Numbered from the stretch's first letter, positions 784 through 61,482 are shown. The stretch: 64,000 bases of DNA from an uncultured bacterium (GCA_913050325.1 CAJWZP010000002.1:66180-130179), one strand, 5' to 3'. A program made the numbers and translations. Notes: generated from the sequence alone by a model not told the origin.

Positions 784-855
784 GCTGGCGTAGCTCAGAG
801 GTAGAGCAGCTGATTTGTAATCAGCCGGTCGGGGGTTCAAGTCCCTTCGCCAGCT
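784..855 (+). tRNA. tRNA-Thr (anticodon TGT)
   Basis: Cloverleaf folded by hand. Acceptor GCTGGCG/CGCCAGC, D-arm GCTC-AGAGGTA-GAGC, anticodon stem GCTGA/TCAGC with loop TTTGTAA (anticodon TGT), T-arm GGGGG-TTCAAGT-CCCTT. No encoded CCA. Confidence 0.85.
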
Positions 856-860
856 AATTT

Positions 861-943
861 GGGGATATGGCAGAGTGGACAAATGCATCAGACTGTAAAT
901 CTGACGGCGTAAGCCTACGGTGGTTCGAATCCATCTATCCCCA
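861..943 (+). tRNA. tRNA-Tyr (anticodon GTA), class II with long variable arm
   Basis: Acceptor GGGGATA/TATCCCC, anticodon stem TCAGA/TCTGA with loop CTGTAAA, a 16-nt variable arm, T-arm GGTGG-TTCGAAT-CCATC. Confidence 0.85.
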
Positions 944-949
944 TAAAGC

Positions 950-1023
950 GCGGGAGTAGCTCAGTTGGCTAGAGCATCTGCCTTCCAAGCAGAGGGTCGC
1001 GGGTTCGAGTCCCGTTTCCCGCT
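950..1023 (+). tRNA. tRNA-Gly (anticodon TCC)
   Basis: Acceptor GCGGGAG/TTCCCGC (one G-U pair), D-arm GCTC-AGTTGGCTA-GAGC, anticodon stem TCTGC/GCAGA with loop CTTCCAA, T-arm with GTTCGAGTC. Confidence 0.85.
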
Positions 1024-1026
1024 TTT

Positions 1027-1098
<72 letters not shown>

Positions 1099-1156
1099 AA
1101 AAAATATTTTGGTAACAGTTATTGTTACTAGTAAATCAACGAGGTAGATTTAAGTT

Positions 1157-1318
1157 ATGGGAGATAATATAGTAGTAGTCGCTTTAGAGTGTATAGAATG
1201 TTCTGGAAAGAACAAGTATCACTATAGAAAAAATAAAAAAGTTCAAAGAGATAAACTTGAGCTGAAAAAATATTGTAAATATTGTAAGGGACATTTTATA
1301 CATAAAGAAACCAAATAG
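1157..1318 (+). CDS. rpmG: 50S ribosomal protein L33 (zinc-ribbon form), 53 aa; absent from the ORF track because it is under 60 aa
   Basis: Hand translation gives MGDNIVVVALECIECSGKNKYHYRKNKKVQRDKLELKKYCKYCKGHFIHKETK*. It has CxxC...CxxC knuckles and the L33 signature KLELKKYCxxCxxH. There is a GAGG SD 12 nt upstream. Its location upstream of secE-nusG matches the rpmG-secE-nusG arrangement of many bacteria. Confidence 0.8.
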   Translation: MGDNIVVVALECIECSGKNKYHYRKNKKVQRDKLELKKYCKYCKGHFIHKETK

Positions 1319-1389
1319 GGGTGTAGCTCAGTTGGTAGAGCGACGGTCTCCAAAACCGTAGGTCGGGAGTTCGAGACTCTCCACCCCTG
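1317..1389 (+). tRNA. tRNA-Trp (anticodon CCA)
   Basis: D-arm GCTC-AGTTGGTA-GAGC, anticodon stem CGGTC/GACCG-like with loop containing CTCCAAA (anticodon CCA), T-loop GTTCGAGAC. The 5' acceptor overlaps the rpmG stop codon by 2 nt, so the 5' end is +/-2 nt. Confidence 0.85.
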
Positions 1390-24637: not shown

Positions 24638-25180
24638 ATGCCAGTATATGAATTTGAATGTAGAGAATGTATGTCTAGTTACAATAAGGCTATTGATAAA
24701 CTCGTCAAAAATCTTAATAAAAAATATGCCGCAGATTTATACAAGAAAAATAAAAATTTTAAATATATAGAATTATTAAATCCTAAGACAGATAAAACAA
24801 TTTTTTCTGTCGGTAAAGAAGGAAACAAAGGTATTAGAAGATTTAGATATAAGTTAGATGAAAAAAAGTTTCTATATCTTGAAATAATTGATTTTAAATT
24901 TAGCGAACTTTTTTTTGAAGGTGATAAAGTTGAAGACATTGAATGCCCTAACAATAAAAAGTGTAAAGATATACATAGAGTTTTTTCCGCTTTTAAAGCT
25001 ATATTTGAAAAAAGAGGAGGAGCTAAAGATAGAGCTCCTAAACCTGGAGACCCTTTAAGTTGGCACAAAGATTACAAAGTTATGAAAGATGAAGAGCAAG
25101 CTTCTAATTGGGTTGGACAAGACCATTTAAATCAATATTTTGGTAATTCTCAACATGATGGTTCTTATGGATCAGATTAA
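24638..25180 (+). CDS. FmdB-like zinc-ribbon protein with a ~90-aa insertion between the two Cys knuckles (paralog A)
   Basis: 180 aa. The N-terminus MPVYEFECRECMS matches the FmdB-family start (MPxYEYxCxxC). The second knuckle is CPNNKKC, followed by RVFSAFKAIF..G (compare FmdB CPxCGxx.RLIS..F.F). Has a disordered Gly/Asp/Ser-rich tail. Confidence 0.6.
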   Translation: MPVYEFECRECMSSYNKAIDKLVKNLNKKYAADLYKKNKNFKYIELLNPKTDKTIFSVGKEGNKGIRRFRYKLDEKKFLYLEIIDFKFSELFFEGDKVEDIECPNNKKCKDIHRVFSAFKAIFEKRGGAKDRAPKPGDPLSWHKDYKVMKDEEQASNWVGQDHLNQYFGNSQHDGSYGSD

Positions 25181-25191
25181 GGAGAAAGTTA

Positions 25192-25734
25192 ATGCCATTA
25201 TATGAATTTGAATGCGTACCATTAAGAAAAAATATTTTAGATTCAATAGTTTCTATTGAAAAAAAACCAACTAAGAAAACAATCGAATCAATTGTAAAAA
25301 AGTATTCAAATATAAATTTAATAATACTTGTAGACCTTGATAAAGAAAAAGAAATTGCAAGATTTGGAGAGGCTATGGATTCCGATATTGATATTGATCT
25401 TTATGTAAATGATGGAAAAATAATGGCCTTATATTCCGTAACTAATTTTAGATTTTCTGAGCTTGTTATGAGTGAAGAAGATGAAAAAAATATTAAATGT
25501 CCATGTTGTAATAAAAAACAGAAAGTTGAAAGAGTTATTTCTTCATTTTCTTACACTAGTGACTTATCAACAAACCCACCTAAGCCACCTGGTGTTAAAG
25601 ATTTACCTAAAGAAATTCAGGGAAAATTTGCTACTACAGAGTACGTTGAAGAGAAAGATAAGCCAGCGAATATCAAAAGAGACAATAGATATAAGCATCA
25701 ATATCAAGATAAATCCAAAACAAAAATACTTTAA
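25192..25734 (+). CDS. FmdB-like split zinc-ribbon protein, paralog B (first knuckle degenerate)
   Basis: 180 aa. Starts MPLYEFECVPL (one Cys only). Shares F(K/R)FSEL, CPxxxKKxK..RVxSxF and PKP blocks with the upstream paralog. GGAG SD 8 nt upstream. Confidence 0.6.
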   Translation: MPLYEFECVPLRKNILDSIVSIEKKPTKKTIESIVKKYSNINLIILVDLDKEKEIARFGEAMDSDIDIDLYVNDGKIMALYSVTNFRFSELVMSEEDEKNIKCPCCNKKQKVERVISSFSYTSDLSTNPPKPPGVKDLPKEIQGKFATTEYVEEKDKPANIKRDNRYKHQYQDKSKTKIL

Positions 25735-26861: not shown

Positions 26862-27449
26862 ATGAAATTAATTGATCCAATTAAGAAGTATCTTATGGAT
26901 AAAAACTACGTCTATGAGATAGATACTACCTCTAATAATAAATACTCATCCATCTCTTTAATTATCAGAGATATTGAAGATGATATTGAACTCCTTTTTA
27001 TAAAAAGAGCTAAAAGAAAAGGTGACCATTTTTCAGGACATATGGCATTTCCTGGTGGTGTAAAAGAGAAATATGATAAAGATTTATTTCAAACCGCCCT
27101 TAGAGAAACAGATGAGGAAGTAGGAATCAATCTAAAAAAAGATGCTGAATACTTAGGTAATCTTGAACAGTATAAACCCGTAAATCCGGCGGCTAATAAA
27201 TTCTTAGTATCTCCTTTCATTTTTTATCTTAAGAAAAATAATATCAAATTAACTCTTAACTCGGATGAGGTGGATGATATTGTATGGGTGCCATTTAATA
27301 TATTGATTTCAATGCTTGATAAAAGCCCCAGAACCAGTGTTAAATATGATAAACCTTATAAGGATTATACCTTTGAATACAAAGGATATAAGATCTGGGG
27401 AATGACAGGGAAAATATTGTATAGATTTTTAACAAATATTTATAGGTGA
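26862..27449 (+). CDS. NUDIX hydrolase (CoA pyrophosphatase-like)
   Basis: 195 aa with the Nudix box GHMAFPGGVKEKYDKDLFQTALRETDEEVGI. Confidence 0.8.
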   Translation: MKLIDPIKKYLMDKNYVYEIDTTSNNKYSSISLIIRDIEDDIELLFIKRAKRKGDHFSGHMAFPGGVKEKYDKDLFQTALRETDEEVGINLKKDAEYLGNLEQYKPVNPAANKFLVSPFIFYLKKNNIKLTLNSDEVDDIVWVPFNILISMLDKSPRTSVKYDKPYKDYTFEYKGYKIWGMTGKILYRFLTNIYR

Positions 27450-29306: not shown

Positions 29307-31082
29307 ATGTGTGGAATATACTCATCATTATCAACAAATAAAATATTATGTTCAGATTTTTTAATCTCTTTAAAAGAACTCGAATATAGAGGATACGATT
29401 CAGCGGGTCTAGTAACTCTTGATAAAAATAAAAAATATAAATCTTATAAAACACTTTCAAAAATTGATGATTTGAAATTAAAAATATCAAAAGAGGAGTC
29501 TTCGAGTTTACTTATTGGTCATACCCGGTGGGCAACACACGGAAAACCAAACATTAAAAACTGTCATCCTCATATCATTGAAAACTTATCTATTGTCCAT
29601 AATGGTGTTGTTGAGAATTATGATGATTTAAAAAAAAATAAGATCTTTAAAAATGTAAAATTTAAAACAGATACTGATACAGAAATGATTCTTTTATTAA
29701 TTTATAATTATTGTAAATCTAATAGCTTTATTAACGCCGTAAAAAAAACAATTAAATTGATTAAAGGGTCAAATGCATTTGTATGTTCAAATATAGGAAA
29801 GGATATCAATGAATTAGCAGCATACAAAAATAACACGCCACTTTACTTTGGGATAAAAAATAATGGTGAAAAAGTTTTTTCCTCTGATGTAAATGCAATG
29901 TCGAATTCACTAAAAGGATATTATTATTTAGATAATAACGATATAATTCATATTACCAATAAAAATACAGCTCTTTACAATAAGAAAAATAAAAGAATAG
30001 TTTTAAAAAAAATTGTTGATTCAAATTTTAAAAAACCTAAAGTTGTCTCAAGTTGTTATACATATTCTGAAATTAAAGATCAAAAAAAAATAATTTCAAC
30101 TTATGGTAAAAATATTCAAAAAATCTATAAAGTGGTTAGAAAAATTAAAAAGCCTAATGAGATTAATATTATTGGGTGTGGATCTTCATATAATGCGGGG
30201 TTATTGGCAAAAGCTTTTTTAGAAAAAAACTCAAATATTCCTACATCCGTTTACCGTCCTTCCGAATTTAATTTTTTTTTAAATAATAAAAATAAATTAT
30301 TTATATTTATTTCTCAAAGTGGTGAAACCGCTGATATTTGCTCACTGATTGAATCCAAGAAGGAATTCTTTTCAAACTCATTATCAATAGTTAATAATGA
30401 TGATTCAAGATTAGTAAGAGAATCAAAATATAATATTAATCTTAATGTAGGTTTAGAAAGAGGAGTTGCAGCTACTAAAACTTTCTCCTCTCAAATATTA
30501 GTTTTGAATATAATATCAAAAATTTTATCTAAAGATAATAATAATTTAGTATTTCCATCAAGCTCTGTGATTAATAAATTATTTTCTTATGAAAAAGAAA
30601 TCATAAAGTTATCAAAAAAATATTCAAAATTTAAAAACCTTTTTGTTTTAGGTAGGAATTATAATTTCCCTATAGCGTGTGAAGCAGCTTTAAAAATAAA
30701 AGAAATATCATATATTCATGCAGAAGGAGCTCCATCATCTGAAATCAAACATGGACCTATTGCATTATTTGATAATAAATTCCCTGTTATTTTTTTAGTA
30801 TCGAATAAAAAAGAGACGATACATAGTGAAATTTCTAGCTTAAATGAAGTTATTTCTCGAACGAATAATATTTTTCTGATTGCTCCCGATACGGTTGTAA
30901 AAAAACTCGATCCAAAAACTTTATCAAAAATTGACGTGATAGCAGTTCCAGATTTTCAAAATGATATGGCTCCTATATTATATTTAATTATTTTGCAGCT
31001 TTTTTCATACCATTTAGCAAAAAGTAAAAAACTTAACATAGATCAACCAAGAAATTTAGCCAAGGTTGTCACAGTAGAATGA
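29307..31082 (+). CDS. glmS: glutamine--fructose-6-phosphate aminotransferase (isomerizing)
   Basis: 591 aa with an N-terminal nucleophile MCGI, two SIS domains, and the C-terminal ...VVTVE typical of GlmS. Confidence 0.93.
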   Translation: MCGIYSSLSTNKILCSDFLISLKELEYRGYDSAGLVTLDKNKKYKSYKTLSKIDDLKLKISKEESSSLLIGHTRWATHGKPNIKNCHPHIIENLSIVHNGVVENYDDLKKNKIFKNVKFKTDTDTEMILLLIYNYCKSNSFINAVKKTIKLIKGSNAFVCSNIGKDINELAAYKNNTPLYFGIKNNGEKVFSSDVNAMSNSLKGYYYLDNNDIIHITNKNTALYNKKNKRIVLKKIVDSNFKKPKVVSSCYTYSEIKDQKKIISTYGKNIQKIYKVVRKIKKPNEINIIGCGSSYNAGLLAKAFLEKNSNIPTSVYRPSEFNFFLNNKNKLFIFISQSGETADICSLIESKKEFFSNSLSIVNNDDSRLVRESKYNINLNVGLERGVAATKTFSSQILVLNIISKILSKDNNNLVFPSSSVINKLFSYEKEIIKLSKKYSKFKNLFVLGRNYNFPIACEAALKIKEISYIHAEGAPSSEIKHGPIALFDNKFPVIFLVSNKKETIHSEISSLNEVISRTNNIFLIAPDTVVKKLDPKTLSKIDVIAVPDFQNDMAPILYLIILQLFSYHLAKSKKLNIDQPRNLAKVVTVE

Positions 31083-31111
31083 GCTTACCTGGACAGTGTG
31101 CATATTTTTGA

Positions 31112-31276
31112 TTATTTTCTATAAATATATGACAGATTCACGATTGGTGCTAAAAACCAAACTGATGTTGAAGTCCATAGAATCCAACTTTTAGGCAAAC
31201 CATGACTAATAAAAAATCCAGCACACATTATTAATAACAATATATTCATTGAAATTGCTAATTTTTTTATGTTCAT
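31112..31276 (-). CDS. small hypothetical membrane protein (54 aa, two predicted TM helices); absent from the ORF track
   Basis: Hand translation of the minus strand gives MNIKKLAISMNILLLIMCAGFFISHGLPKSWILWTSTSVWFLAPIVNLSYIYRK*. A strong SD AAGGAGA (complement of 31284-31290) lies 7 nt upstream of the ATG at 31276. Stop TAA at 31112-31114. Confidence 0.45.
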   Translation of the reverse strand: MNIKKLAISMNILLLIMCAGFFISHGLPKSWILWTSTSVWFLAPIVNLSYIYRK

Positions 31277-31376
31277 TGTTGTTCTCCTTATTAAATACTA
31301 TTTACTAAATAATTTTATTTCTTAATATGTAAATATAGCTAATTTACAGTGAAATATATTCTTATGGAATAAAGTA

Positions 31377-31404
31377 TTGTCATTTTAACTATTTAGGGTA
31401 AATT
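31377..31404 (+). promoter_or_regulatory. candidate sigma70-type promoter for the proteorhodopsin gene
   Basis: -35 TTGTCA at 31377-31382, a 16-nt spacer, and -10 TAAATT at 31399-31404, about 30 nt before the ATG. SD AGGGAGG at 31421-31427. Confidence 0.3.
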
Positions 31405-31435
31405 CATCTTTAACTTAATTAGGGAGGTCTTTTAC

Positions 31436-32194
31436 ATGTCAAAGTATGTAAATTACTTTTTACTTTCCGCAATTATTGCTTGCATGCCGCTAGTATCATT
31501 CGCTGGAACAAATTTAGCCCCTAATGATCCTGTTGGAATTTCTTTCTGGATTATTTCAGTCGCAATGGTAGCCGCTACTGCTTTCTTCTTCCTAGAGTCT
31601 CTAAGAGTTCAAGGTAAGTTTAGAACATCATTAGTAGTTGGTGGTCTTATTTGTTTGGTTGCAGGCGTACACTATTTCTATATGAGAGAAGTGTGGGCTT
31701 CTACAGGTTCATCTCCAACTGTATTCAGATACGTTGACTGGATTGTAACCGTTCCACTTCAAATGGTTGAATTCTATCTCATATTAGCTGCTGTTACAGC
31801 TGTATCACTTGGTGTCTTCTGGAGACTTCTAATCGGTACTGTTGTTATGGTTGTTGCAGGTTATTTAGGCGAAGCTGGCTTCATTGATACAACAATTGGT
31901 TTTGTTGTAGGAATGGGTGGTTGGGCTTATATCCTGTATGAGATCTTCTCAGGCGAAGCAAGTGCTAGTGCTTCTAAAGCTGCACCTGCTGTTCAATCCG
32001 CATTTAATACAATGAAATGGATTGTAACCATTGGCTGGGCTATCTATCCTTTAGGTTATTTCTTAGGATATATGACCGGTGGTGGTGCTGATGCAGATAC
32101 TCTAAATATAGTTTATAACGTTGCAGATTTTATAAATAAAATTGGTTTTTGTTTAGCAATATGGGCTGCTGCTACAACACAAGCTGATGCTTAA
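31436..32194 (+). CDS. proteorhodopsin (light-driven proton pump), blue-tuned variant
   Basis: 252 aa with a signal peptide plus 7 TM helices. Has the PR-specific His (GVHYFYMR), proton acceptor Asp and donor Glu in RYVDWIVTVPLQMVEFYLIL, and the Schiff-base Lys in ADFINKIGF. The spectral-tuning position is Gln (PLQMVEF). Confidence 0.93.
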   Translation: MSKYVNYFLLSAIIACMPLVSFAGTNLAPNDPVGISFWIISVAMVAATAFFFLESLRVQGKFRTSLVVGGLICLVAGVHYFYMREVWASTGSSPTVFRYVDWIVTVPLQMVEFYLILAAVTAVSLGVFWRLLIGTVVMVVAGYLGEAGFIDTTIGFVVGMGGWAYILYEIFSGEASASASKAAPAVQSAFNTMKWIVTIGWAIYPLGYFLGYMTGGGADADTLNIVYNVADFINKIGFCLAIWAAATTQADA

Positions 32195-32204
32195 AAAAAT
32201 TAAA

Positions 32205-32235
32205 GGGTTTGTATCAATGATATAAACCCTTTTTT
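32205..32235 (+). terminator. rho-independent terminator after the proteorhodopsin gene
   Basis: 11-bp stem GGGTTTGTATC / GATATAAACCC (one G-U pair) with loop AAT, followed by TTTTTT at 32230-32235. Confidence 0.7.
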
Positions 32236-32252
32236 ACCTTATAATTTTAAAA

Positions 32253-33740
32253 ATGAAAATTAATAAAACTTTAGTAGTAGGTGGAGGTTTTGGGGGTATT
32301 GCTGCAGCTTTAAGAATGAAAGCTTTGGGTCATGATGTAACAATCATTGATAGACTATCAAAGTTAGGTGGAAGAGCTCAGGTCATAGACAGGAATGGAT
32401 ATAAATATGATACAGGCCCAACAGTTATAACTGCACCTTTTTTATTTAAAGAATTATTTAATCTTTTTGATGAAAATATTGAAGATTATTTAGATTTTAA
32501 ACCTTTAGAACCATGGTATAGATTTTACTTTCATGATGGTTCAAGCTTCGATTATTCATCATCAATCAATAAAACAAAAGAGGAAATATCTAAATATTCC
32601 AAGAGCGATTCTGAGGGATATGATCGTCTATTAGAAGAATCTAAAAAAATATTTGAGATTGGATTTACAAAATTATCGGACCAGCCATTTTTATCCTTTT
32701 GGACAATGATTAAGCAAGTTCCATCACTATTAAAGTTAAAAAGTTATTTAAGCGTATATGATATCGTTTCAAAATATATTAAAAATTCAAAAATTAGATC
32801 TGCTTTTTCAATCCATCCTTTACTAGTAGGTGGTAATCCATATACAACAACATCAATTTACTCATTGATTCATTATTTAGAAAGAAAATGGGGAGTATTT
32901 TTTTGTATGGGAGGAACGGGAAAATTAGTTGAGGAACTAACAAATTTATTAAATAGAGTAGGTGTAAGAATTTGTTTGAATGAGGATATCAAATCAGTAG
33001 AACATAAAAATTCTATTGCTTACAAAGCAATAACATCGAATGGAAAAGAATATTTTTTTGATAATATAATTTTCAATGGCGATCCTCCCACTTTCTACTC
33101 TGAAATCCTAAAACCGAAAAAAAGAAATCTTATAAACCCGATATTACCTGATAGCCTAATGACTTATTCCATGGGTTTATTTGTTTTGTTTTTTGGTACA
33201 AATAATCAATATAAGGATATAGCTCATCATACTATTTGGTTATCGAAAAGATTTAAGGGTCTTTTAAATGATATTTTTAAAGAAAAAGACTTGCCAGATG
33301 ATTTTTCACTTTATCTTCATAGGCCAACTGCAACTGATTCAACTTTTGCGCCAGAAGGTTGTGATAGCTATTATGTTTTATGCCCTGTACCAAACTTAAG
33401 ATCAAGCATAAATTGGAAAGTAGAAGGAGATAATTTAAAAAATAATATTATTAATGAATTAGAAAGAACCATAATGCCAAATTTAAAATCAAACATTAAA
33501 GATTTATCTTATATGACTCCTATAGATTTTAAAAATGATTATAGATCAATGCATGGAGCAGGCTTTTCAATAGCACCTATATTTTATCAATCAGCCTGGT
33601 TTAGATATCATAATCAAGATTCTAAAATTAAAAATATTTATTTTTCTGCAGCTGGCGCTCACCCTGGAGCTGGTATTCCAGGTGTTTTATCATCTGCAAA
33701 AGTAGTAGAAAATATTATAAGTAGAAATAAAAATGCTTAA
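32253..33740 (+). CDS. crtI: phytoene desaturase
   Basis: 495 aa with an N-terminal FAD-binding site (VVGGGFGGIAAALRMKALGHDVTIID) and the CrtI-family C-terminus. Confidence 0.9.
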   Translation: MKINKTLVVGGGFGGIAAALRMKALGHDVTIIDRLSKLGGRAQVIDRNGYKYDTGPTVITAPFLFKELFNLFDENIEDYLDFKPLEPWYRFYFHDGSSFDYSSSINKTKEEISKYSKSDSEGYDRLLEESKKIFEIGFTKLSDQPFLSFWTMIKQVPSLLKLKSYLSVYDIVSKYIKNSKIRSAFSIHPLLVGGNPYTTTSIYSLIHYLERKWGVFFCMGGTGKLVEELTNLLNRVGVRICLNEDIKSVEHKNSIAYKAITSNGKEYFFDNIIFNGDPPTFYSEILKPKKRNLINPILPDSLMTYSMGLFVLFFGTNNQYKDIAHHTIWLSKRFKGLLNDIFKEKDLPDDFSLYLHRPTATDSTFAPEGCDSYYVLCPVPNLRSSINWKVEGDNLKNNIINELERTIMPNLKSNIKDLSYMTPIDFKNDYRSMHGAGFSIAPIFYQSAWFRYHNQDSKIKNIYFSAAGAHPGAGIPGVLSSAKVVENIISRNKNA

Positions 33741-34602
33741 TGAAAAAATTGAAAAATTTAAAAATAATGGAAAAAGTTTTTATTGGGCTAGTAGGATTTT
33801 AAATAGAAATAAAAACGATAAAATATATAATTTGTATTTTATTTTAAGAGAATTAGATGATATCGCTGATAATCAAAATAATGAAAATGAATTTTTTAAA
33901 AAACTTTATGATTTTTTTGATATGAGTAAAAATAATGAATTGCCTTACAGATTAGAAAAACATAAAGATTTTTTTCTATATATTAAGAATGATTCATTAA
34001 TGAATAAGAATTTTAAAGATTTTATCACTGGTTTAATATTTGATCAGAAGGATAATGTAATAATTGACTCCCAGGATGAATTGTTAAATTATTGTTATAG
34101 AGTTGCAGGAACAATAGGTGTCATGATGTGTCCAATTTTAAATGTAAAAAATGAGCATGCAACTATACCTGCTACTAATCTCGGTATAGCAATGCAATTG
34201 ACCAATATTGCTAGAGATGTCTATGAAGATGCATTAAGTAACAGAAGATATTTACCTTCATCTTGGACAAACGGCATTGAACCTAAATTAATAATTGGTA
34301 AGTCTGATTGTATTGAATCAGTTGCCTATTTGTCAGTTAAAGATGGAATAAAAAAAACAATAGAATTAGCAGAAAAATATTATGAAGATGCAAAAAAAGG
34401 ATATTCCTATTTACCACTTAGGTCTAGATTGTGTATCGCAGTTGCAGCAAATATTTATAGAGAGATTGGGAAAAAAATTAAAAAAGAAAATTATAATTGG
34501 TCATCTTATAGGCACTTTGTAAAAAATTATGAAAAGTTGTACATAACTCTTAAGTCTATAATTTCTGAATTTTATTTAATTTTTAAAGAGAAAATACAAT
34601 GA
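33733..34602 (+). CDS. crtB: phytoene synthase
   Basis: 289 aa, squalene/phytoene synthase family (YWASRIL...LRELDDIAD; Asp-rich motifs). Overlaps crtI by 8 nt. Confidence 0.88.
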   Translation: MLNEKIEKFKNNGKSFYWASRILNRNKNDKIYNLYFILRELDDIADNQNNENEFFKKLYDFFDMSKNNELPYRLEKHKDFFLYIKNDSLMNKNFKDFITGLIFDQKDNVIIDSQDELLNYCYRVAGTIGVMMCPILNVKNEHATIPATNLGIAMQLTNIARDVYEDALSNRRYLPSSWTNGIEPKLIIGKSDCIESVAYLSVKDGIKKTIELAEKYYEDAKKGYSYLPLRSRLCIAVAANIYREIGKKIKKENYNWSSYRHFVKNYEKLYITLKSIISEFYLIFKEKIQ

Positions 34603-35702
34603 GTTCAAGTAAAACAATTTCTATCATTGGGGGAGGTTGTGCAGGATATAGTCTTTTAAATAAATTAAAAAATGTAAGTAATATTGAAATTGATTTTTTC
34701 ATCGGAAAGAATCAAGGAATAAATAATTTCTGGGGATATTGGGAATATGATAAAGATATTCCAGATAATATTTTGAGTGGCAAATGGAATAAGTGGAAAA
34801 TTTCAACTCAAGATGGTGAAAAATTTTTTGAATCCTCTAGTCATCCATATTGTGTAACTACAAGACATAATTGGATTTCATATTGTAAGCAGAATACTAA
34901 TAAAAAAAATATAAGAATATTAAAAGAGGATATAATGGAAATTAATAATAAAATTTATAATAAAAATAATGATGAAATTATTTCTGATTTTATTTTTGAT
35001 TCTAGATATACAAATAAATCTAAAAATATTTTCTTACAGCATTTTAAAGGTTTTTTAATTAAAACTGAAACTGATTGTTTTGATGATGAAGTCTTAACTT
35101 TAATGGATTTCAGATGTGATCAATCTAAAGGTATGCAGTTTGTATATGTTTTACCATTTACAAAAAAAATTGCATTGATTGAGCCAACGATTTATTCGTA
35201 CAACATTGAAGACGAAATCTATTATAAAAAAACTTTAGAATCATATCTTTATGATATATATAAAATAAAAAAATATAATATTATTAAGACTGAAAAAGGA
35301 TCAATTCCATTGGAACACAATAATATTAAAAAAGGACCTTATTTTAATATTGGTATCAATGGTAATGTTAATCGAAAATCATCTGGATATACATTCACTT
35401 TTATTCAAAAACAATCAATTTTAATAAAAAATTTCTTCTTGAATATAAGTAATGATTTGTCATTAAAAGTGCAGTCAAATTTTTTTAATTTTTTAGATGA
35501 AATTTTTCTAGATGTTATTAAAAGAAAACCCAGCATTGGACCTTTAATTTTTTATTCTTTCGGAAAGTCTTTTAATGGTAATGAGATGTCAGATTTTATG
35601 AATAACAGAATTAATTTTATTCCTTTTATGAAAATGTTATTTAACTTACCATTTAAGGAATTTATTAAATCTTTCATCAGGTGTTTATTTAATTATGGAT
35701 AG
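34599..35702 (+). CDS. crtY: lycopene beta-cyclase (CrtY type)
   Basis: 367 aa with an N-terminal dinucleotide-binding site (SIIGGGCAGYSL) and CrtY-family architecture. Overlaps crtB by 4 nt. Confidence 0.8.
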   Translation: MSSSKTISIIGGGCAGYSLLNKLKNVSNIEIDFFIGKNQGINNFWGYWEYDKDIPDNILSGKWNKWKISTQDGEKFFESSSHPYCVTTRHNWISYCKQNTNKKNIRILKEDIMEINNKIYNKNNDEIISDFIFDSRYTNKSKNIFLQHFKGFLIKTETDCFDDEVLTLMDFRCDQSKGMQFVYVLPFTKKIALIEPTIYSYNIEDEIYYKKTLESYLYDIYKIKKYNIIKTEKGSIPLEHNNIKKGPYFNIGINGNVNRKSSGYTFTFIQKQSILIKNFFLNISNDLSLKVQSNFFNFLDEIFLDVIKRKPSIGPLIFYSFGKSFNGNEMSDFMNNRINFIPFMKMLFNLPFKEFIKSFIRCLFNYG

Positions 35703-36492
35703 CATCACATTATATTCTCTGATACTTATAATTCTAGTAGGCCTTCCACATGGAGCCCTTGATGGTGCAGTTAGTTTGTGTCTTGAAATAAATAATTCGT
35801 TAAGAAATATAATTATTTTTATAAGTGTTTATATCTTAATAGCTTTTATAGTAGTTATTTTATGGTTGAACTTTTCCGAACTGGCTTTGATATTTTTTCT
35901 AATAATTAGCATCATGCATTTTGGTATTGGTGATTTAGAATGGGAAAGTGGTTTTTCAAAATATATTTTGGGATTCTTTATTGGCGGGTTGGTAGTTGTT
36001 GGTACCTCTCTATTAAATAGAGATGATGTTAATAATATCTTCTTATACTTATCTGAACGTACAGACATGGTTTGGTATTTTATTGAATACTCTTCATATT
36101 TATGGATTCTATCGGTACCATATTTCATCAATAAAATTGATAAATTTTCTACTCAATTTTTAATAAAGATTTTTTTTATTTTTATATTTGTAGTTTTTTT
36201 ACCACCCTTATTAGCATTTTCTTTCTATTTTTGCTTTATACATACTATTAATCATTTTGGAAGAATAGTTCCTCAACTTAAAAACAAAATGACAAATAAG
36301 AAGATTTTTTATACTTTTTTACTTTTTACTCTATCTAGTTGGCTAATAGGATTTATTGTATATGAATTATTTAAGGATTCTTTTGATTTTGTTGAACTTA
36401 CGTATAAGATTCTTTTTATCGGATTGGCAGCTTTAACGGTACCACATATGATTTTAATTGATTTTTATTTTAGGCCCCTTAAGAAAGTATGA
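35695..36492 (+). CDS. blh: beta-carotene 15,15'-dioxygenase (Brp/Blh family), the retinal-forming enzyme
   Basis: 265 aa polytopic membrane protein with the Blh signature N-terminus (LILIILVGLPHGALDG) and conserved His residues. Immediately downstream of crtY with an 8-nt overlap. Confidence 0.82.
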   Translation: MDSITLYSLILIILVGLPHGALDGAVSLCLEINNSLRNIIIFISVYILIAFIVVILWLNFSELALIFFLIISIMHFGIGDLEWESGFSKYILGFFIGGLVVVGTSLLNRDDVNNIFLYLSERTDMVWYFIEYSSYLWILSVPYFINKIDKFSTQFLIKIFFIFIFVVFLPPLLAFSFYFCFIHTINHFGRIVPQLKNKMTNKKIFYTFLLFTLSSWLIGFIVYELFKDSFDFVELTYKILFIGLAALTVPHMILIDFYFRPLKKV

Positions 36493-36764
36493 TTATAAAA
36501 ATTTTGGAAATTAGTGAGACAAGCTATAATGTTATTGTAGAGTCAAGTTCAAAAACAGAACATAATGTATCATTGGAATCATCTTATTATAAAAAACTTA
36601 CATTAGAAAAAATATCTAAAAAAAAATTAATTGAATTAAGTTTTGAATTTCTTTTAGCAAGAGAATCAAATTCGTCGATTCTCAGTAAATTTGATCTCAG
36701 TTTAATTAGTAATTATTTCCCTGAGTTTGAAAATGAAATTATAATTAAAATAAAGGAGATTTAA
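36489..36764 (+). CDS. hypothetical small protein (91 aa), translationally coupled to blh
   Basis: Its ATG overlaps the blh stop (ATGA). MIIKILEISETSYNVIVESSSKTEHNVSLESSYYKKLTLEKISKKKLIELSFEFLLARESNSSILSKFDLSLISNYFPEFENEI.... No family recognised. Confidence 0.5.
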   Translation: MIIKILEISETSYNVIVESSSKTEHNVSLESSYYKKLTLEKISKKKLIELSFEFLLARESNSSILSKFDLSLISNYFPEFENEIIIKIKEI

Positions 36765-36765
36765 G

Positions 36766-38046
36766 TTGAGAGTTTTAGTAGTTGGATCAGGTGGACGTGA
36801 ACATGCAATTTGTTGGGGTATAGCTAAAAGTAATAAAGTAAAAAAAATATATTGTGCACCTGGAAATGCTGGTATTAGTGAATTTGCTGAAAATGTAGAA
36901 ATTCCTGCTGATAACATTAATAAACTTTTAGAATTTGCATTAAAAGAAAAAATAGATTTTACAATTGTTGGACCTGAACAACCTTTATCGCTTGGTATTG
37001 TCGATCTGTTCAGAGATAATAAGCTTTTGATTTTTGGTCCTAGTAAGTTTGCATCTCAATTAGAGTCTAGTAAAGAATTTTCGAAATTATTTATGGAACG
37101 AAATAATATTCCGACTGCATCTTTTAAATCTTTTACATCATATGATGAAGCAAAAGCATATTTAAATGAATCAAATTTACCAATTGTAATCAAAGCAGAT
37201 GGTTTAGCATCTGGAAAGGGTGTTAAGGTTTGTATGGAAATGGAGGAAGCAAATTCTTTTTTAAAAGAAATAATGTTAGACAAAATTTTTTCTAAATCTG
37301 GAGAAAAAGTTGTTATTGAAAGTTTTCTAGAAGGAGAGGAGGCATCTTTCTTTGTATTTTCAGATGGAGAAAAAATACTTTGTTTAGACTCTTCACAAGA
37401 TCATAAAAGATTACTTGATGATGATAAAGGACCTAACACGGGTGGTATGGGTGCATATTCTCCGGCACCAATCATAGATGAAGAAACTAAAGAAAAAATA
37501 TTAAATGAAATTATTAATCCAGTTTTTGAGGCATTTAAAAAAGAAAATTTTGAATATACTGGAATTCTATATGTTGGTTTAATGATTAATAATAAAAAGC
37601 CTAGTGTTGTAGAATTTAATTGTAGATTTGGCGATCCTGAAACTCAACCTTTACTTTTTAGGATTGAATCAGATATCTTTGATCTGTTCTACCAGACAGC
37701 CTTAAAACAAATTGATCAGTACCAATTGATTTGGAAAAGAAAAACAGCTATTTCAGTTGTTTTAGCCTCATTAGGATATCCTATGAATCCAGAAACTGGA
37801 GGAGAGATTAAAGAATTAGAATCTTTTAAAAATACTGATGATGAATTTGTATTTCATGCTGGTACTAAATTTTTAGATAATAAAGTTGTTATTTCAGGTG
37901 GAAGAGTTTTAAATATAACTGCATTAGGACACGATCTTGAAGATGCTATTAATAAAGTTTATGACTCTATAAATAAAGTAGAATTAAAAAACTTTCATTA
38001 CAGAAATGATATAGGTAAAAAGGGCCTTGTGAAAAAAACCAAATAG
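36766..38046 (+). CDS. purD: phosphoribosylamine--glycine ligase (TTG start)
   Basis: 426 aa; MRVLVVGSGGREHAICW is the PurD N-terminus, and it has an ATP-grasp domain. AAGGAG SD 8 nt upstream of the TTG. Confidence 0.92.
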   Translation: MRVLVVGSGGREHAICWGIAKSNKVKKIYCAPGNAGISEFAENVEIPADNINKLLEFALKEKIDFTIVGPEQPLSLGIVDLFRDNKLLIFGPSKFASQLESSKEFSKLFMERNNIPTASFKSFTSYDEAKAYLNESNLPIVIKADGLASGKGVKVCMEMEEANSFLKEIMLDKIFSKSGEKVVIESFLEGEEASFFVFSDGEKILCLDSSQDHKRLLDDDKGPNTGGMGAYSPAPIIDEETKEKILNEIINPVFEAFKKENFEYTGILYVGLMINNKKPSVVEFNCRFGDPETQPLLFRIESDIFDLFYQTALKQIDQYQLIWKRKTAISVVLASLGYPMNPETGGEIKELESFKNTDDEFVFHAGTKFLDNKVVISGGRVLNITALGHDLEDAINKVYDSINKVELKNFHYRNDIGKKGLVKKTK

Positions 38047-38047
38047 C

Positions 38048-38076
38048 TTGACATAGATTAAAAGTGTGGCATATTT
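38048..38076 (+). promoter_or_regulatory. candidate promoter of the str operon
   Basis: Perfect -35 TTGACA at 38048-38053, a 17-nt spacer, then ATATTT/TATTTC at 38071-38077. About 25 nt upstream of the rpsL SD GAGG. Confidence 0.45.
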
Positions 38077-38099
38077 CATGCATTAAATATGAGGTTATA

Positions 38100-38953
<854 letters not shown>

Positions 38954-59213: not shown

Positions 59214-60143
59214 ATGCGCTATCTAATTATATTTATTTTTTTATTATTTTCTTTAAAGTCATATGGTATCACGAAAGTATATAATTTAATAGATGAAAAA
59301 CTCACAATTCATACAACGAATCCTTTAACTAAAGATCAAAAAAATAAAATAGAAGATATTTTAGATAATATAACAGCAGTTCTTGATGTAACGGATTCAG
59401 ATTCTTTTGTATCAAGATTTAATAATTTAGAAAAAAATTCTGAGGTTTCAGCTCCTGATGTATTCGTTGATGCATATAAAGTATTAAATGATTATAATAA
59501 AATAACTAAAGGTAAATTCGATCCGACAGCTTTTACACTTTTGTCTAAAAGTCAAAAAGTCAAAAAGTTAAATTACTATTTAAAATCTGGTGTTCATTCA
59601 AGATGTACTTCGTTAAAAAATATCAAAATTAAAATTAACAATGTTTTCTCTAAAAAAGAAAAATGTACTAAAATTAGTTTTAATTCTTTGATATATGGAA
59701 AAGTAGTTGATGAAATACAAATATTTTTTGATTCAGAAAAAATTAACGCCTATGCAATAATTTTTAATAATGTTGTTGCGAAAAAAAATTTTTCTTTTAG
59801 TGAAATTAGTACATTGAAACTTTCAGATTATATAAAGGAAAAGGTTAATTTTGATTTAATAAATAATTTTGGAATCTATGAACTTTCTGATAATTTATAT
59901 ATTCATAACATAAATATGAAAGATGAAAATTTAATATTAAATGATGAAATTATTATTCTCGTTTCTACAAGCTCAAACTCTAACAACAATATCCTAGCAA
60001 ATACCTTAAATCTTATGGATTTTGATAAAATAAAAAATTTAAACAATTCAGAAGTAAAGATTCCAATATTTATTTTATATAAAATCGGGGACATGTATAA
60101 TTTTTCATATACAGATAATTTTAAAAGATTTCTATCTGATTAG
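59214..60143 (+). CDS. hypothetical exported protein, Asn/Ile/Lys-rich (signal peptide)
   Basis: 309 aa with an N-terminal signal peptide (MRYLIIFIFLLFSLKSYG). No confident family assignment. Its start is 3 nt from the divergent metF start. Confidence 0.6.
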   Translation: MRYLIIFIFLLFSLKSYGITKVYNLIDEKLTIHTTNPLTKDQKNKIEDILDNITAVLDVTDSDSFVSRFNNLEKNSEVSAPDVFVDAYKVLNDYNKITKGKFDPTAFTLLSKSQKVKKLNYYLKSGVHSRCTSLKNIKIKINNVFSKKEKCTKISFNSLIYGKVVDEIQIFFDSEKINAYAIIFNNVVAKKNFSFSEISTLKLSDYIKEKVNFDLINNFGIYELSDNLYIHNINMKDENLILNDEIIILVSTSSNSNNNILANTLNLMDFDKIKNLNNSEVKIPIFILYKIGDMYNFSYTDNFKRFLSD

Positions 60144-61482
60144 AATTCGAAAAATTATTAACATATCTATCTATATCAAATTTTCTCTTTAATCCATTTT
60201 CATTCATATATCTAATTTTTCCAAAAATACTTCTTTCTTTCCAACCTCTATCATGTAAACCAAAACACCATAAAATACCAACATAACTATTAGGATTTCT
60301 ACCATCCAACTGATATTTATTATTTAGATAAAGAGCTATTTTAATACCTTCTTGAAAATTTTTAGTCCATTCTAATATTTTTTTTCCCCAGTACATCCTC
60401 ATATATCCATGAATATATCCATATTTTAATAATTGAATTTGAGCTGAATTCCAATATAAATCATGAGTTTTTGCAAATTCAAAATCATGTAAGTCATATA
60501 CGAATTCTCTTTTGTCTTCTTGATGACTAATTAAGGATTCAATGGCCCAATTTGGTAGACCTTTATGATTGTTATAGTTTTTATTATGATAAGTATAATT
60601 GTAGGCAAGCTCTCTTCTTATTAGAATTTGCTCAACAAATGAATTGGTGAAATTAAAATTTATTTTCATTAAATCATATATAATTTCAAATATCGAAATA
60701 TGACCATAGTGAAGATATTTACTCATACATGAATTTTTTATATTTTCTGGATTATTAGATTTTTCATCATAATTAAAAATGTCATTATCAATATAATTTT
60801 TAAAAGTATTTACTGCGTTATCATGACCACCTTGTATGTCTTGATTAATAAGATATTTATCTTTTGGTAAATCGCTTAGAATTTTAAAGATATCTATTGT
60901 ATATTCGTTAGGATCATCCAATGTTGTAATTCCATTTAATTCATTTTCAATTTTAAAGGTTTGATCAATCAAATCATCTACTAACTTGTAATACTTTCTC
61001 CTAAACGTAGCTGCTGAATATTCCTCTTTGTTAGAAACTAGTTTTGTGGGTAAATATAAATTATCAATTGAATAAATATTGCAATCAATATCTTTTAATT
61101 CACTTTTTAAATATTTTCTGGATCTTTCAGTATAAGGTTCATCAAGAACTAAAGTGTCACAATCACTTAAAATTAATGAACATAAATTTGTCCCATACTC
61201 ATAAAAGTTAATATTATGATTAAAATTATTAAACTTTAGTAATACATCTTTTAAACCTTCAAACATAAATTTCAAATGTCTCGATATACAATCGTATTGG
61301 ATTTTGTTATAAATAAAAAAGATTTTAAGTGGTAGTTTTTTTTCTTTTGCAATCCTAGCAGCAAATCTGAGAGAAAAATTATTTTCTATTCTTTGGTTTG
61401 AAGTCATCCAATAAGAAATAAATTTCCCCGTTTTATCTGCTTTTCTTAATATAGTGCTTCTATCTTTTTCGAATTGAATCAT
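60121..61482 (-). CDS. phr: class II CPD (deoxyribodipyrimidine) photolyase
   Basis: 453 aa. The C-terminal FAD-binding region matches class II photolyase signatures (GYIHGYMRMYWGKKILEWT...LDGRNPNSYVGILWCFGLHDRGWKERSIFGKIRYMN). Confidence 0.88.
   Translation of the reverse strand: MIQFEKDRSTILRKADKTGKFISYWMTSNQRIENNFSLRFAARIAKEKKLPLKIFFIYNKIQYDCISRHLKFMFEGLKDVLLKFNNFNHNINFYEYGTNLCSLILSDCDTLVLDEPYTERSRKYLKSELKDIDCNIYSIDNLYLPTKLVSNKEEYSAATFRRKYYKLVDDLIDQTFKIENELNGITTLDDPNEYTIDIFKILSDLPKDKYLINQDIQGGHDNAVNTFKNYIDNDIFNYDEKSNNPENIKNSCMSKYLHYGHISIFEIIYDLMKINFNFTNSFVEQILIRRELAYNYTYHNKNYNNHKGLPNWAIESLISHQEDKREFVYDLHDFEFAKTHDLYWNSAQIQLLKYGYIHGYMRMYWGKKILEWTKNFQEGIKIALYLNNKYQLDGRNPNSYVGILWCFGLHDRGWKERSIFGKIRYMNENGLKRKFDIDRYVNNFSNSNQIEIF

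Follow-up and report, generated by a model that had tools for sequence, protein, structure and literature searches.

The proteorhodopsin (PR)-retinal module is the standard way to photoheterotrophy among marine bacteria. Clusters linking PR to crtEIBY and blh have been described, including the bacterial artificial chromosome MED13K09, which possesses crtIBY and blh with crtE about 25 kb away, outside the operon, and Blh has been shown experimentally to split beta-carotene into retinal (Sabehi et al. 2005, PMC1175822). A PR photosystem cluster is sufficient for photophosphorylation in Escherichia coli (Martinez et al. 2007, as summarised in a passage of PMC8049014). The retinal cluster of SAR116 (Alphaproteobacteria) is co-located with PR, according to a passage in Roda-Garcia et al. 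(2021, PMC8547437). For Dadabacteria, sections of Graham & Tully (2021, PMC8115339) report that clade I, but not clade II, has H+-pumping, mostly blue (Q105) PRs together with retinal biosynthesis, rhodopsin and retinal synthesis being confined to pelagic clade I among all Dadabacteria. The present locus, PR followed by crtI, crtB, crtY and blh, occupies positions 31436-36492 of a 64,000-nucleotide stretch of DNA from an uncultured bacterium (GCA_913050325.1, CAJWZP010000002.1:66180-130179), here called the window. Both PR with crtIBY-blh and a distant crtE (2005) and PR with retinal synthesis in this clade (2021) are already known, and the module is conceptually nothing new. Our overall reading, in which we place considerable confidence, is that the window comes from a pelagic clade I dadabacterium that acquired a SAR116-related cassette once, as a unit, and in which PR forms a strong expression unit with leaky read-through into crtIBY-blh.

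PR (31436-32194, 252 aa) is followed on the same strand, after a gap of 58 nt, by crtI (32253-33740, phytoene desaturase), crtB (33733-34602, phytoene synthase at family level), crtY (34599-35702, lycopene beta-cyclase at Pfam level) and blh (35695-36492, Brp/Blh beta-carotene 15,15'-dioxygenase). All five genes lie on the plus strand, and the last four overlap by 8, 4 and 8 nt in the list of open reading frames (ORFs). The flanks are glmU-glmS upstream and purD-rpsL-rpsG-fusA downstream, as seen in the ORF list and in Pfam searches; glmS (29307-31082, plus strand; Pfam SIS and GATase) and purD (36766-38046, plus strand; Pfam GARS_N/A/C; TTG start with a strong AAGGAG) are the immediate neighbours of the cassette. 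A first-pass annotation of the window had given the same arrangement, with its gap and its three overlaps, and these match the ORF coordinates exactly. It had also named the five genes, placed them between glmUS, purD and ribosomal genes, and sought crtE and idi elsewhere; profile searches back all five names (CrtB and CrtY at family level), the flanks are borne out, and both absent genes are indeed missing from the window.

The same-strand arrangement of PR with crtI, crtB, crtY and blh is that of other marine PR photosystem clusters, and the lack of crtE is shared with MED13K09. In contrast, MED66A03, RED17H08 and HF10_19P19 carry crtE and/or idi, neither of which is present here within 64 kb, and the host of the present locus belongs to another phylum. 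The cassettes of SAR116 (Puniceispirillales; loci among L004-L022 of our collection, see below) show the same order PR-crtI-crtB-crtY-blh, no crtE, a hairpin with a U-run after PR, the DTE motif and mostly blue PRs. They differ in their flanks (argC and a 258 aa ORF upstream, ubiA downstream), in a longer PR-crtI spacer of about 70-170 nt, depending on the subgroup, versus 58 nt here, and in the absence of two small ORFs, orf91 and sm54, which accompany the cassette in the window.

The profile searches leave the assignments of PR, CrtI and Blh secure. CrtI reaches 516 bits with TIGR02734 (cut-off 238), and Blh 169.5 bits with TIGR03753 (cut-off 95.25) besides a match to PF15461 (4e-43). Blh has histidines at 19, 75, 183 and 187, and the motifs HGALDG, HFG and HxxxH recur in the dadabacterial and SAR116 Blh sequences compared. 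CrtB matches the Pfam family SQS_PSY (PF00494, 2.9e-47, 162 bits) and bears two DxxxD motifs (residues 42 and 162); CrtY matches Lycopene_cycl (PF05834, 4e-31, 108.9 bits versus a gathering score of 23.4). For both, the family is secure, and the specific roles are taken from context and from orthology to the SAR116 cassette. Three observations weigh against the pathway assignment as a whole. The equivalog models for CrtB give 132-141 bits, far under their cut-offs of 480-500, with a similar score for HpnD; CrtY obtains 49 bits with TIGR01790 (cut-off 209) and stays well under the cut-off of TIGR01789 too; and neither crtE nor idi was found in the cassette or in the 64 kb window, the non-ribosomal ORFs of which were scanned for polyprenyl synthases, so that the gene supplying geranylgeranyl pyrophosphate (GGPP) was not located. 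The only NUDIX protein of the window (26862-27449) was considered as a type-1 idi and rejected, its match being CoA-pyrophosphatase-like (68.7 bits) and that to idi poor (E = 0.0055).

Judged by family membership and established carotenoid biochemistry, CrtB would condense two GGPP into phytoene, CrtI would desaturate phytoene to lycopene, CrtY would cyclise lycopene to beta-carotene, and Blh would cleave beta-carotene into two molecules of all-trans retinal, which would bind Lys235 of PR (GPR K231). GGPP would be supplied by a synthase gene outside the 64 kb window. The coverage of every step from GGPP to retinal, proposed in the first-pass annotation, is thereby upheld by way of the five gene identities.

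A scan of one genome per species yielded 80 loci, all of which were searched with 13 window proteins by tblastn. Only four of these loci (L001, L002, L003 and L017) have flanks in common with the window. Their gene order is glmU-glmS-(sm54)-PR-crtI-crtB-crtY-blh-orf91-purD-rpsL-rpsG-fusA, and their FusA is 93-96% identical to that of the window. In L002 (PAZJ02000009, isolate SP78) 13 genes are collinear with the window, with identities of 96% for FusA, 94% for RpsL and 91% for PR. Table S7 of PMC8115339 places TOBG-SP78 among the marine pelagic clade I Dadabacteria and describes its PR as proton-pumping, having D97, E108 and the blue Q105. According to synteny and housekeeping-gene identity, the window is that of a marine, streamlined member of pelagic clade I of the Dadabacteria, the clade of TOBG-SP78, and hence of the lineage treated by Graham & Tully, with which it shares a syntenic locus.

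The first-pass annotation had implied a SAR11 identity and had proposed a comparison of synteny with SAR11 genomes. Low GC (30%), the streamlined gene arrangement and the marine PR are all in keeping with Pelagibacterales, and the SAR11 PR shares with that of the window both its protein family and its niche, the marine surface. The comparison, run on 54 Pelagibacteraceae loci, recovers PRs only 60-62% identical to that of the window, none of its flanking genes, and no detectable crt or blh up to 10 kb on each side of PR. Furthermore, the flank-sharing loci are all from dadabacterial metagenome-assembled or single-amplified genomes, and the PurD relatives are labelled Thermodesulfobacteriota, the home of the dadabacterial lineage at NCBI. 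A SAR11 origin is refuted by the flanks and by the synteny with SP78, and we give it practically no credence; the nearest relatives are marine Dadabacteria.

A search with PurD returns a large group of sequences at 65-66% identity, among them PR-less relatives (L089-L092). Left of the locus these possess the same synteny as the window (aspS-era-ECH-two ORFs lacking an assignment-hisIE-rpoZ-NUDIX-ssb-glmU-glmS), as they do on the right (purD-rpsL-rpsG-fusA-tuf-S10 operon), and their FusA is about 89% identical to that of the window. The glmS stop and the purD start are 21 nt apart in L089 and L090, and an unrelated 126 aa membrane ORF fills the glmS-purD slot in L091 and L092. PR, crt, blh, orf91 and sm54 are not detectable in the four loci even at E = 0.1. 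Because glmS adjoins purD in PR-less relatives of the same synteny, this empty-site comparison identifies positions 31083-36765 (sm54, PR, crtIBY, blh and orf91) as a clade-specific insert of 5.7 kb inside a core region, in agreement with the published confinement of rhodopsin and retinal synthesis to pelagic clade I. The view of the first-pass annotation that the locus lies in the core genome rather than in an island does not hold, in the light of both the adjoining glmS and purD of these relatives and the affinity of the five proteins to SAR116 cassettes. Five species-level genomes carry the cassette at this position. In L017 (7330-10000), from San Francisco Bay, glmS and PR are separated by a further 2.7 kb, which includes several small ORFs and encodes a 313 aa protein with an HNH-nuclease-like motif; on account of this extra sequence, the slot after glmS would seem to be a spot of variable insertion. 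The position just downstream of glmS is also the classical attTn7 site of other bacteria.

The nearest non-dadabacterial relatives of all five cassette proteins are found in SAR116 cassettes, with identities of 67-71% (PR), 63-67% (CrtI), 38-43% (CrtB), 36-39% (CrtY) and 37-43% (Blh). Neighbour-joining trees of the five proteins agree in a monophyletic Dadabacteria as sister group to SAR116. The crtE-bearing alphaproteobacterial cassettes (L025 and L030) fall outside this pair in all five trees. The best non-dadabacterial matches of PurD, for comparison, reach only 51-55% identity. The simplest reading is that the entire cassette was transferred once, its donor being a SAR116-like alphaproteobacterium and its recipient the ancestor of this dadabacterial clade, because the syntenic site is empty in the PR-less relatives and all five proteins are sister to SAR116 cassettes.

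Several points weigh against this transfer. The trees are quick neighbour-joining trees of sequences picked by PR similarity. No convincing boundary repeats or att-like sites were found at the edges of the insert, and no integrase or transposase ORF or other mobility gene at the insert. The crt genes have a host-like GC content of 23-29% with no compositional anomaly, and the 39% GC of PR results mostly from codon positions 1 and 2, i.e. from amino-acid composition. The case for acquisition is made by the empty site and by the phylogenetic affinity of the proteins. The same host-like composition of the crt genes, the same lack of mobility genes and repeats, and the common site in five species-level genomes would suit a cassette that is ancestral to marine Dadabacteria, vertically inherited and cleanly deleted in the PR-less relatives, i.e. 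a loss instead of a gain. Under such a history, five proteins nearest to SAR116 (PR 67-71%, CrtI 63-67%) would have to be reconciled with a PurD at 51-55% to its non-dadabacterial matches; rhodopsin is, moreover, published only for pelagic clade I among Dadabacteria, as far as the sections of PMC8115339 cited above go, and an ancestral cassette would still be foreign to the phylum. We consider this history improbable. Base composition is not informative on transfer, and on the reading of a single transfer the cassette has since taken on the base composition of its host.

PR matches the Pfam family Bac_rhodopsin (PF01036, 1.9e-44, residues 34-248), and its best matches among solved structures are the blue proteorhodopsins 4JQ6 (6e-78) and 4KLY (7e-77). 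Helix C aligns with that of the solved PRs (FRYVDWIVTVPLQMVEF) and keeps the retinal-pocket sequence, including Gln105. The DTE motif (GPR D97-T101-E108) is present as RYVDWIVTVPLQMVEF (local D101/T105/E112), and GPR-His75 is found in GVHYF (local H79). In helix G, VADFINK (229-235) aligns with LADLINK and LADFVNK of the solved PRs and includes the Schiff-base Lys (GPR K231) and the counter-ion Asp (GPR D227). The tuning position, GPR-105, is Gln (local 109), as in 4JQ6 and 4KLY. At position 105 of PR, Gln corresponds to blue and Leu to green absorption. The combination predicts an outward H+ pump of the DTE type that absorbs blue light. PR shares the blue-PR helix C with 4JQ6 and 4KLY, which are other proteins from other hosts. 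An identical PR protein is encoded on 131 contigs of marine metagenomes, those of Tara included. The PR of L017 (10004-10753) has Leu at the tuning position (VPLLMIEF) and is predicted to be green, in contrast to the Gln, predicted blue, of the window and L001-L003; this difference fits an estuarine versus an open-ocean origin.

A hairpin with the features of an intrinsic terminator, followed by six T, lies between PR and crtI (32202-32235, plus strand). Its stem (32202-32232) consists of 14 pairs, including one G-U, with a 3 nt loop, and begins 8 nt after the PR stop; counted alternatively, the same hairpin has an 11 bp stem (32205-32229) followed by T6 (32230-32235), which is the terminator at 32205-32235 of the first-pass annotation. 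The free energy is -16.3 kcal/mol (z = -4.0 to -4.2), none of 200 shuffled sequences folds as well, and on both strands of the whole 64 kb window no other combination of hairpin and T-run is as strong. Equivalent structures are found in L001-L003, L017 and SAR116. In each of the nine loci that were folded (five dadabacterial, four SAR116), the PR stop is immediately followed by a hairpin, with free energies of -16 to -26 kcal/mol and z from -3.6 to -5.7. The stems are unrelated between the lineages, with compensatory changes among the dadabacterial ones. U-runs are canonical (6-9) in the window and in all SAR116 loci. Termination is put in doubt by two features: G-C pairs make up only 4 of the 14 pairs of the stem, and the U-run is degenerate in three of the five dadabacterial loci (L001, L003 and L017), on account of which its role may lean towards that of a 3' stabiliser in some relatives. 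For PR-crt loci, our literature search turned up neither transcript nor terminator evidence, the word 'terminator' matching only an exonuclease kit.

Upstream of PR, a consensus scan and alignment reveal a candidate promoter (TTGTCA-16 nt-TAAATT, 31377-31404, plus strand), of which both hexamers lie inside a conserved block in the alignment of the window with L001, L002 and L003; further upstream the sequences diverge. A Shine-Dalgarno sequence, GGGAGG (31422-31427, plus strand), is placed 8 nt before the PR ATG, is kept in relatives and ranks with the strongest that the window has; the one of tuf is comparable. In front of crtI no Shine-Dalgarno sequence is seen, the T-run being followed by the ATG after just 17 nt, and from crtI through blh, orf91 and purD the genes are packed without gaps. 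A promoter and a strong Shine-Dalgarno sequence for PR, with none of the latter for crtI, fit an expression of PR above that of the enzymes. Promoter-like matches as such are not in excess in this AT-rich DNA (68 found versus 61.7 +/- 7.7 in shuffled sequence). For orf91-purD, a promoter candidate in the 3' end of blh (36424-36452) has a -35 element that is not conserved and a -10 element confounded by conserved P-H-M-I codons.

In the model that we prefer as the most likely, PR would stand by itself as a unit, served by a conserved sigma-70-like promoter and a strong Shine-Dalgarno sequence and closed by a strong hairpin with a U-tract. Transcription of crtIBY-blh, probably with orf91 and purD, would be lower and come from partial read-through at the PR terminator. 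The outcome would be plenty of opsin but few enzyme molecules. Since purD follows glmS directly in the PR-less relatives, some transcription must cross the hairpin or start inside the cassette. Against the model of leaky termination it must be said that how strongly transcription terminates, and from where the crt genes are transcribed, are both inferred. The retention of the hairpin in L001, L003 and L017 despite a weak U-tract, and the lack of a conserved promoter between hairpin and crtI, would be understandable if PR, crtIBY-blh and purD formed essentially one transcript from the PR promoter, with the hairpin serving mainly to stabilise the 3' end of the mRNA or to mark a processing site after cleavage, and not as an efficient terminator. 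A purine-biosynthesis gene that lies gaplessly downstream, and directly after glmS in the PR-less relatives, so that transcription passes through, points the same way. The canonical U-runs (6-9) in the window and all SAR116 loci, and the rank of the hairpin as strongest in 64 kb, speak for termination instead; such a single operon, which differs from partial read-through in degree only, is a possibility that we hold with little confidence.

Transcription that starts inside the cassette would be provided by a promoter of crtIBY-blh laid over the terminator (ATGATA-17-TATAAT, 32217-32245), giving a leaderless mRNA independent of PR. The match to the consensus is 10/12 in the scan, the -10 element ends 7 nt before the crtI ATG, a geometry that suits transcription beginning with the A of the ATG, and a Shine-Dalgarno sequence is missing from crtI. 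In the PR-less L089 (9980-10003) a TATAAT stops 7 nt short of the purD ATG, with the geometry of TATAAT 32240-32245 in the window. The hexamers, however, are not kept in L001-L003 or L017, and promoter-like matches are no commoner than in shuffled sequence, as given above. We regard a separate crtI promoter as rather unlikely, clearly more so than a single operon. The recurrent TATAAT geometry at purD of L089 and crtI of the window hints that leaderless starts may occur in this lineage.

Going beyond leaky termination as such, one may suppose, as a tentative proposal, that the cassette moved as a unit from a SAR116-type bacterium to Dadabacteria, landed after glmS in an ssb-glmU-glmS-purD array, which is unbroken in PR-less relatives, and that purD and the retinal enzymes now depend on a calibrated read-through of the PR terminator. 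If so, purD would be gaplessly fused to crtIBY-blh-orf91 behind the strongest terminator of the region, and chromophore supply would be tied to a housekeeping transcript.

What is added to prior work is incremental: where the cassette inserted, its affinity as a whole to SAR116, and the conserved hairpin after PR. In the sections of PMC8115339 consulted, no account was found of locus organisation, insertion site, a post-PR hairpin, SAR116 affinity or lateral origin, and the word 'horizontal' is missing from the main text. The host of the locus is corrected from SAR11 to a dadabacterium. The empty site and the congruent trees of five genes indicate that the trait dividing two pelagic dadabacterial clades amounts to one small SAR116-related insert. 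The post-PR hairpin, common to both phyla, offers a testable handle on how the ratio of opsin to enzymes is set.

Two small ORFs share the insert with the cassette. The first, sm54 (31112-31276, minus strand, 54 aa), is divergent from PR, encodes two hydrophobic segments and has AAGGAG in front as its ribosome-binding site. It is kept at 67-96% in L001-L003 only, without a counterpart in L017, the SAR116 loci or the PR-less relatives, and has no NCBIfam match. The second, orf91 (36489-36764, plus strand, 91 aa), shares ATGA with the blh stop, and a single nt separates its end from purD. At E<=1e-3 its family comprises 5377 proteins, which are about 85-102 aa long and have the motif LSFEFLLxREPNTSILxxFxLxxIxxYFPEYExEI; there is no Pfam model for it, only weak Pfam and PDB matches, and the identity is about 50% even to sequences labelled Alphaproteobacteria and Hydrogenedentota. 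A role of orf91 as part of the retinal module was rejected on the grounds of this family of more than 5,000 proteins in unrelated contexts, despite its coupling to blh and its absence from the empty sites.

Outside the insert, the window contains another light-related gene (60121-61482, minus strand), the 453 aa product of which obtains 395 bits with the class II photolyase superfamily model TIGR00591, under the cut-off of 550, and has no Pfam match at 1e-5. Two adjacent ORFs of 180 aa each (24638-25180 and 25192-25734, plus strand) belong to no Pfam family and show only a faint zinc-ribbon match; matching pairs (181/179 and 180/179 aa, likewise without Pfam family) occupy the same position in the PR-less L089-L091. 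The ORF of rpsL (38064-38477, plus strand) begins with GTG at 38064, the real start being almost certainly ATG 38100 (125 aa), as on metagenome contigs. A promoter-like TTGACA-16-CATATT with a TG extension (38048-38075) stands just before rpsL. Five tRNA genes (784-1389, plus strand) are located upstream of the nusG-rplKAJL-rpoBC block.

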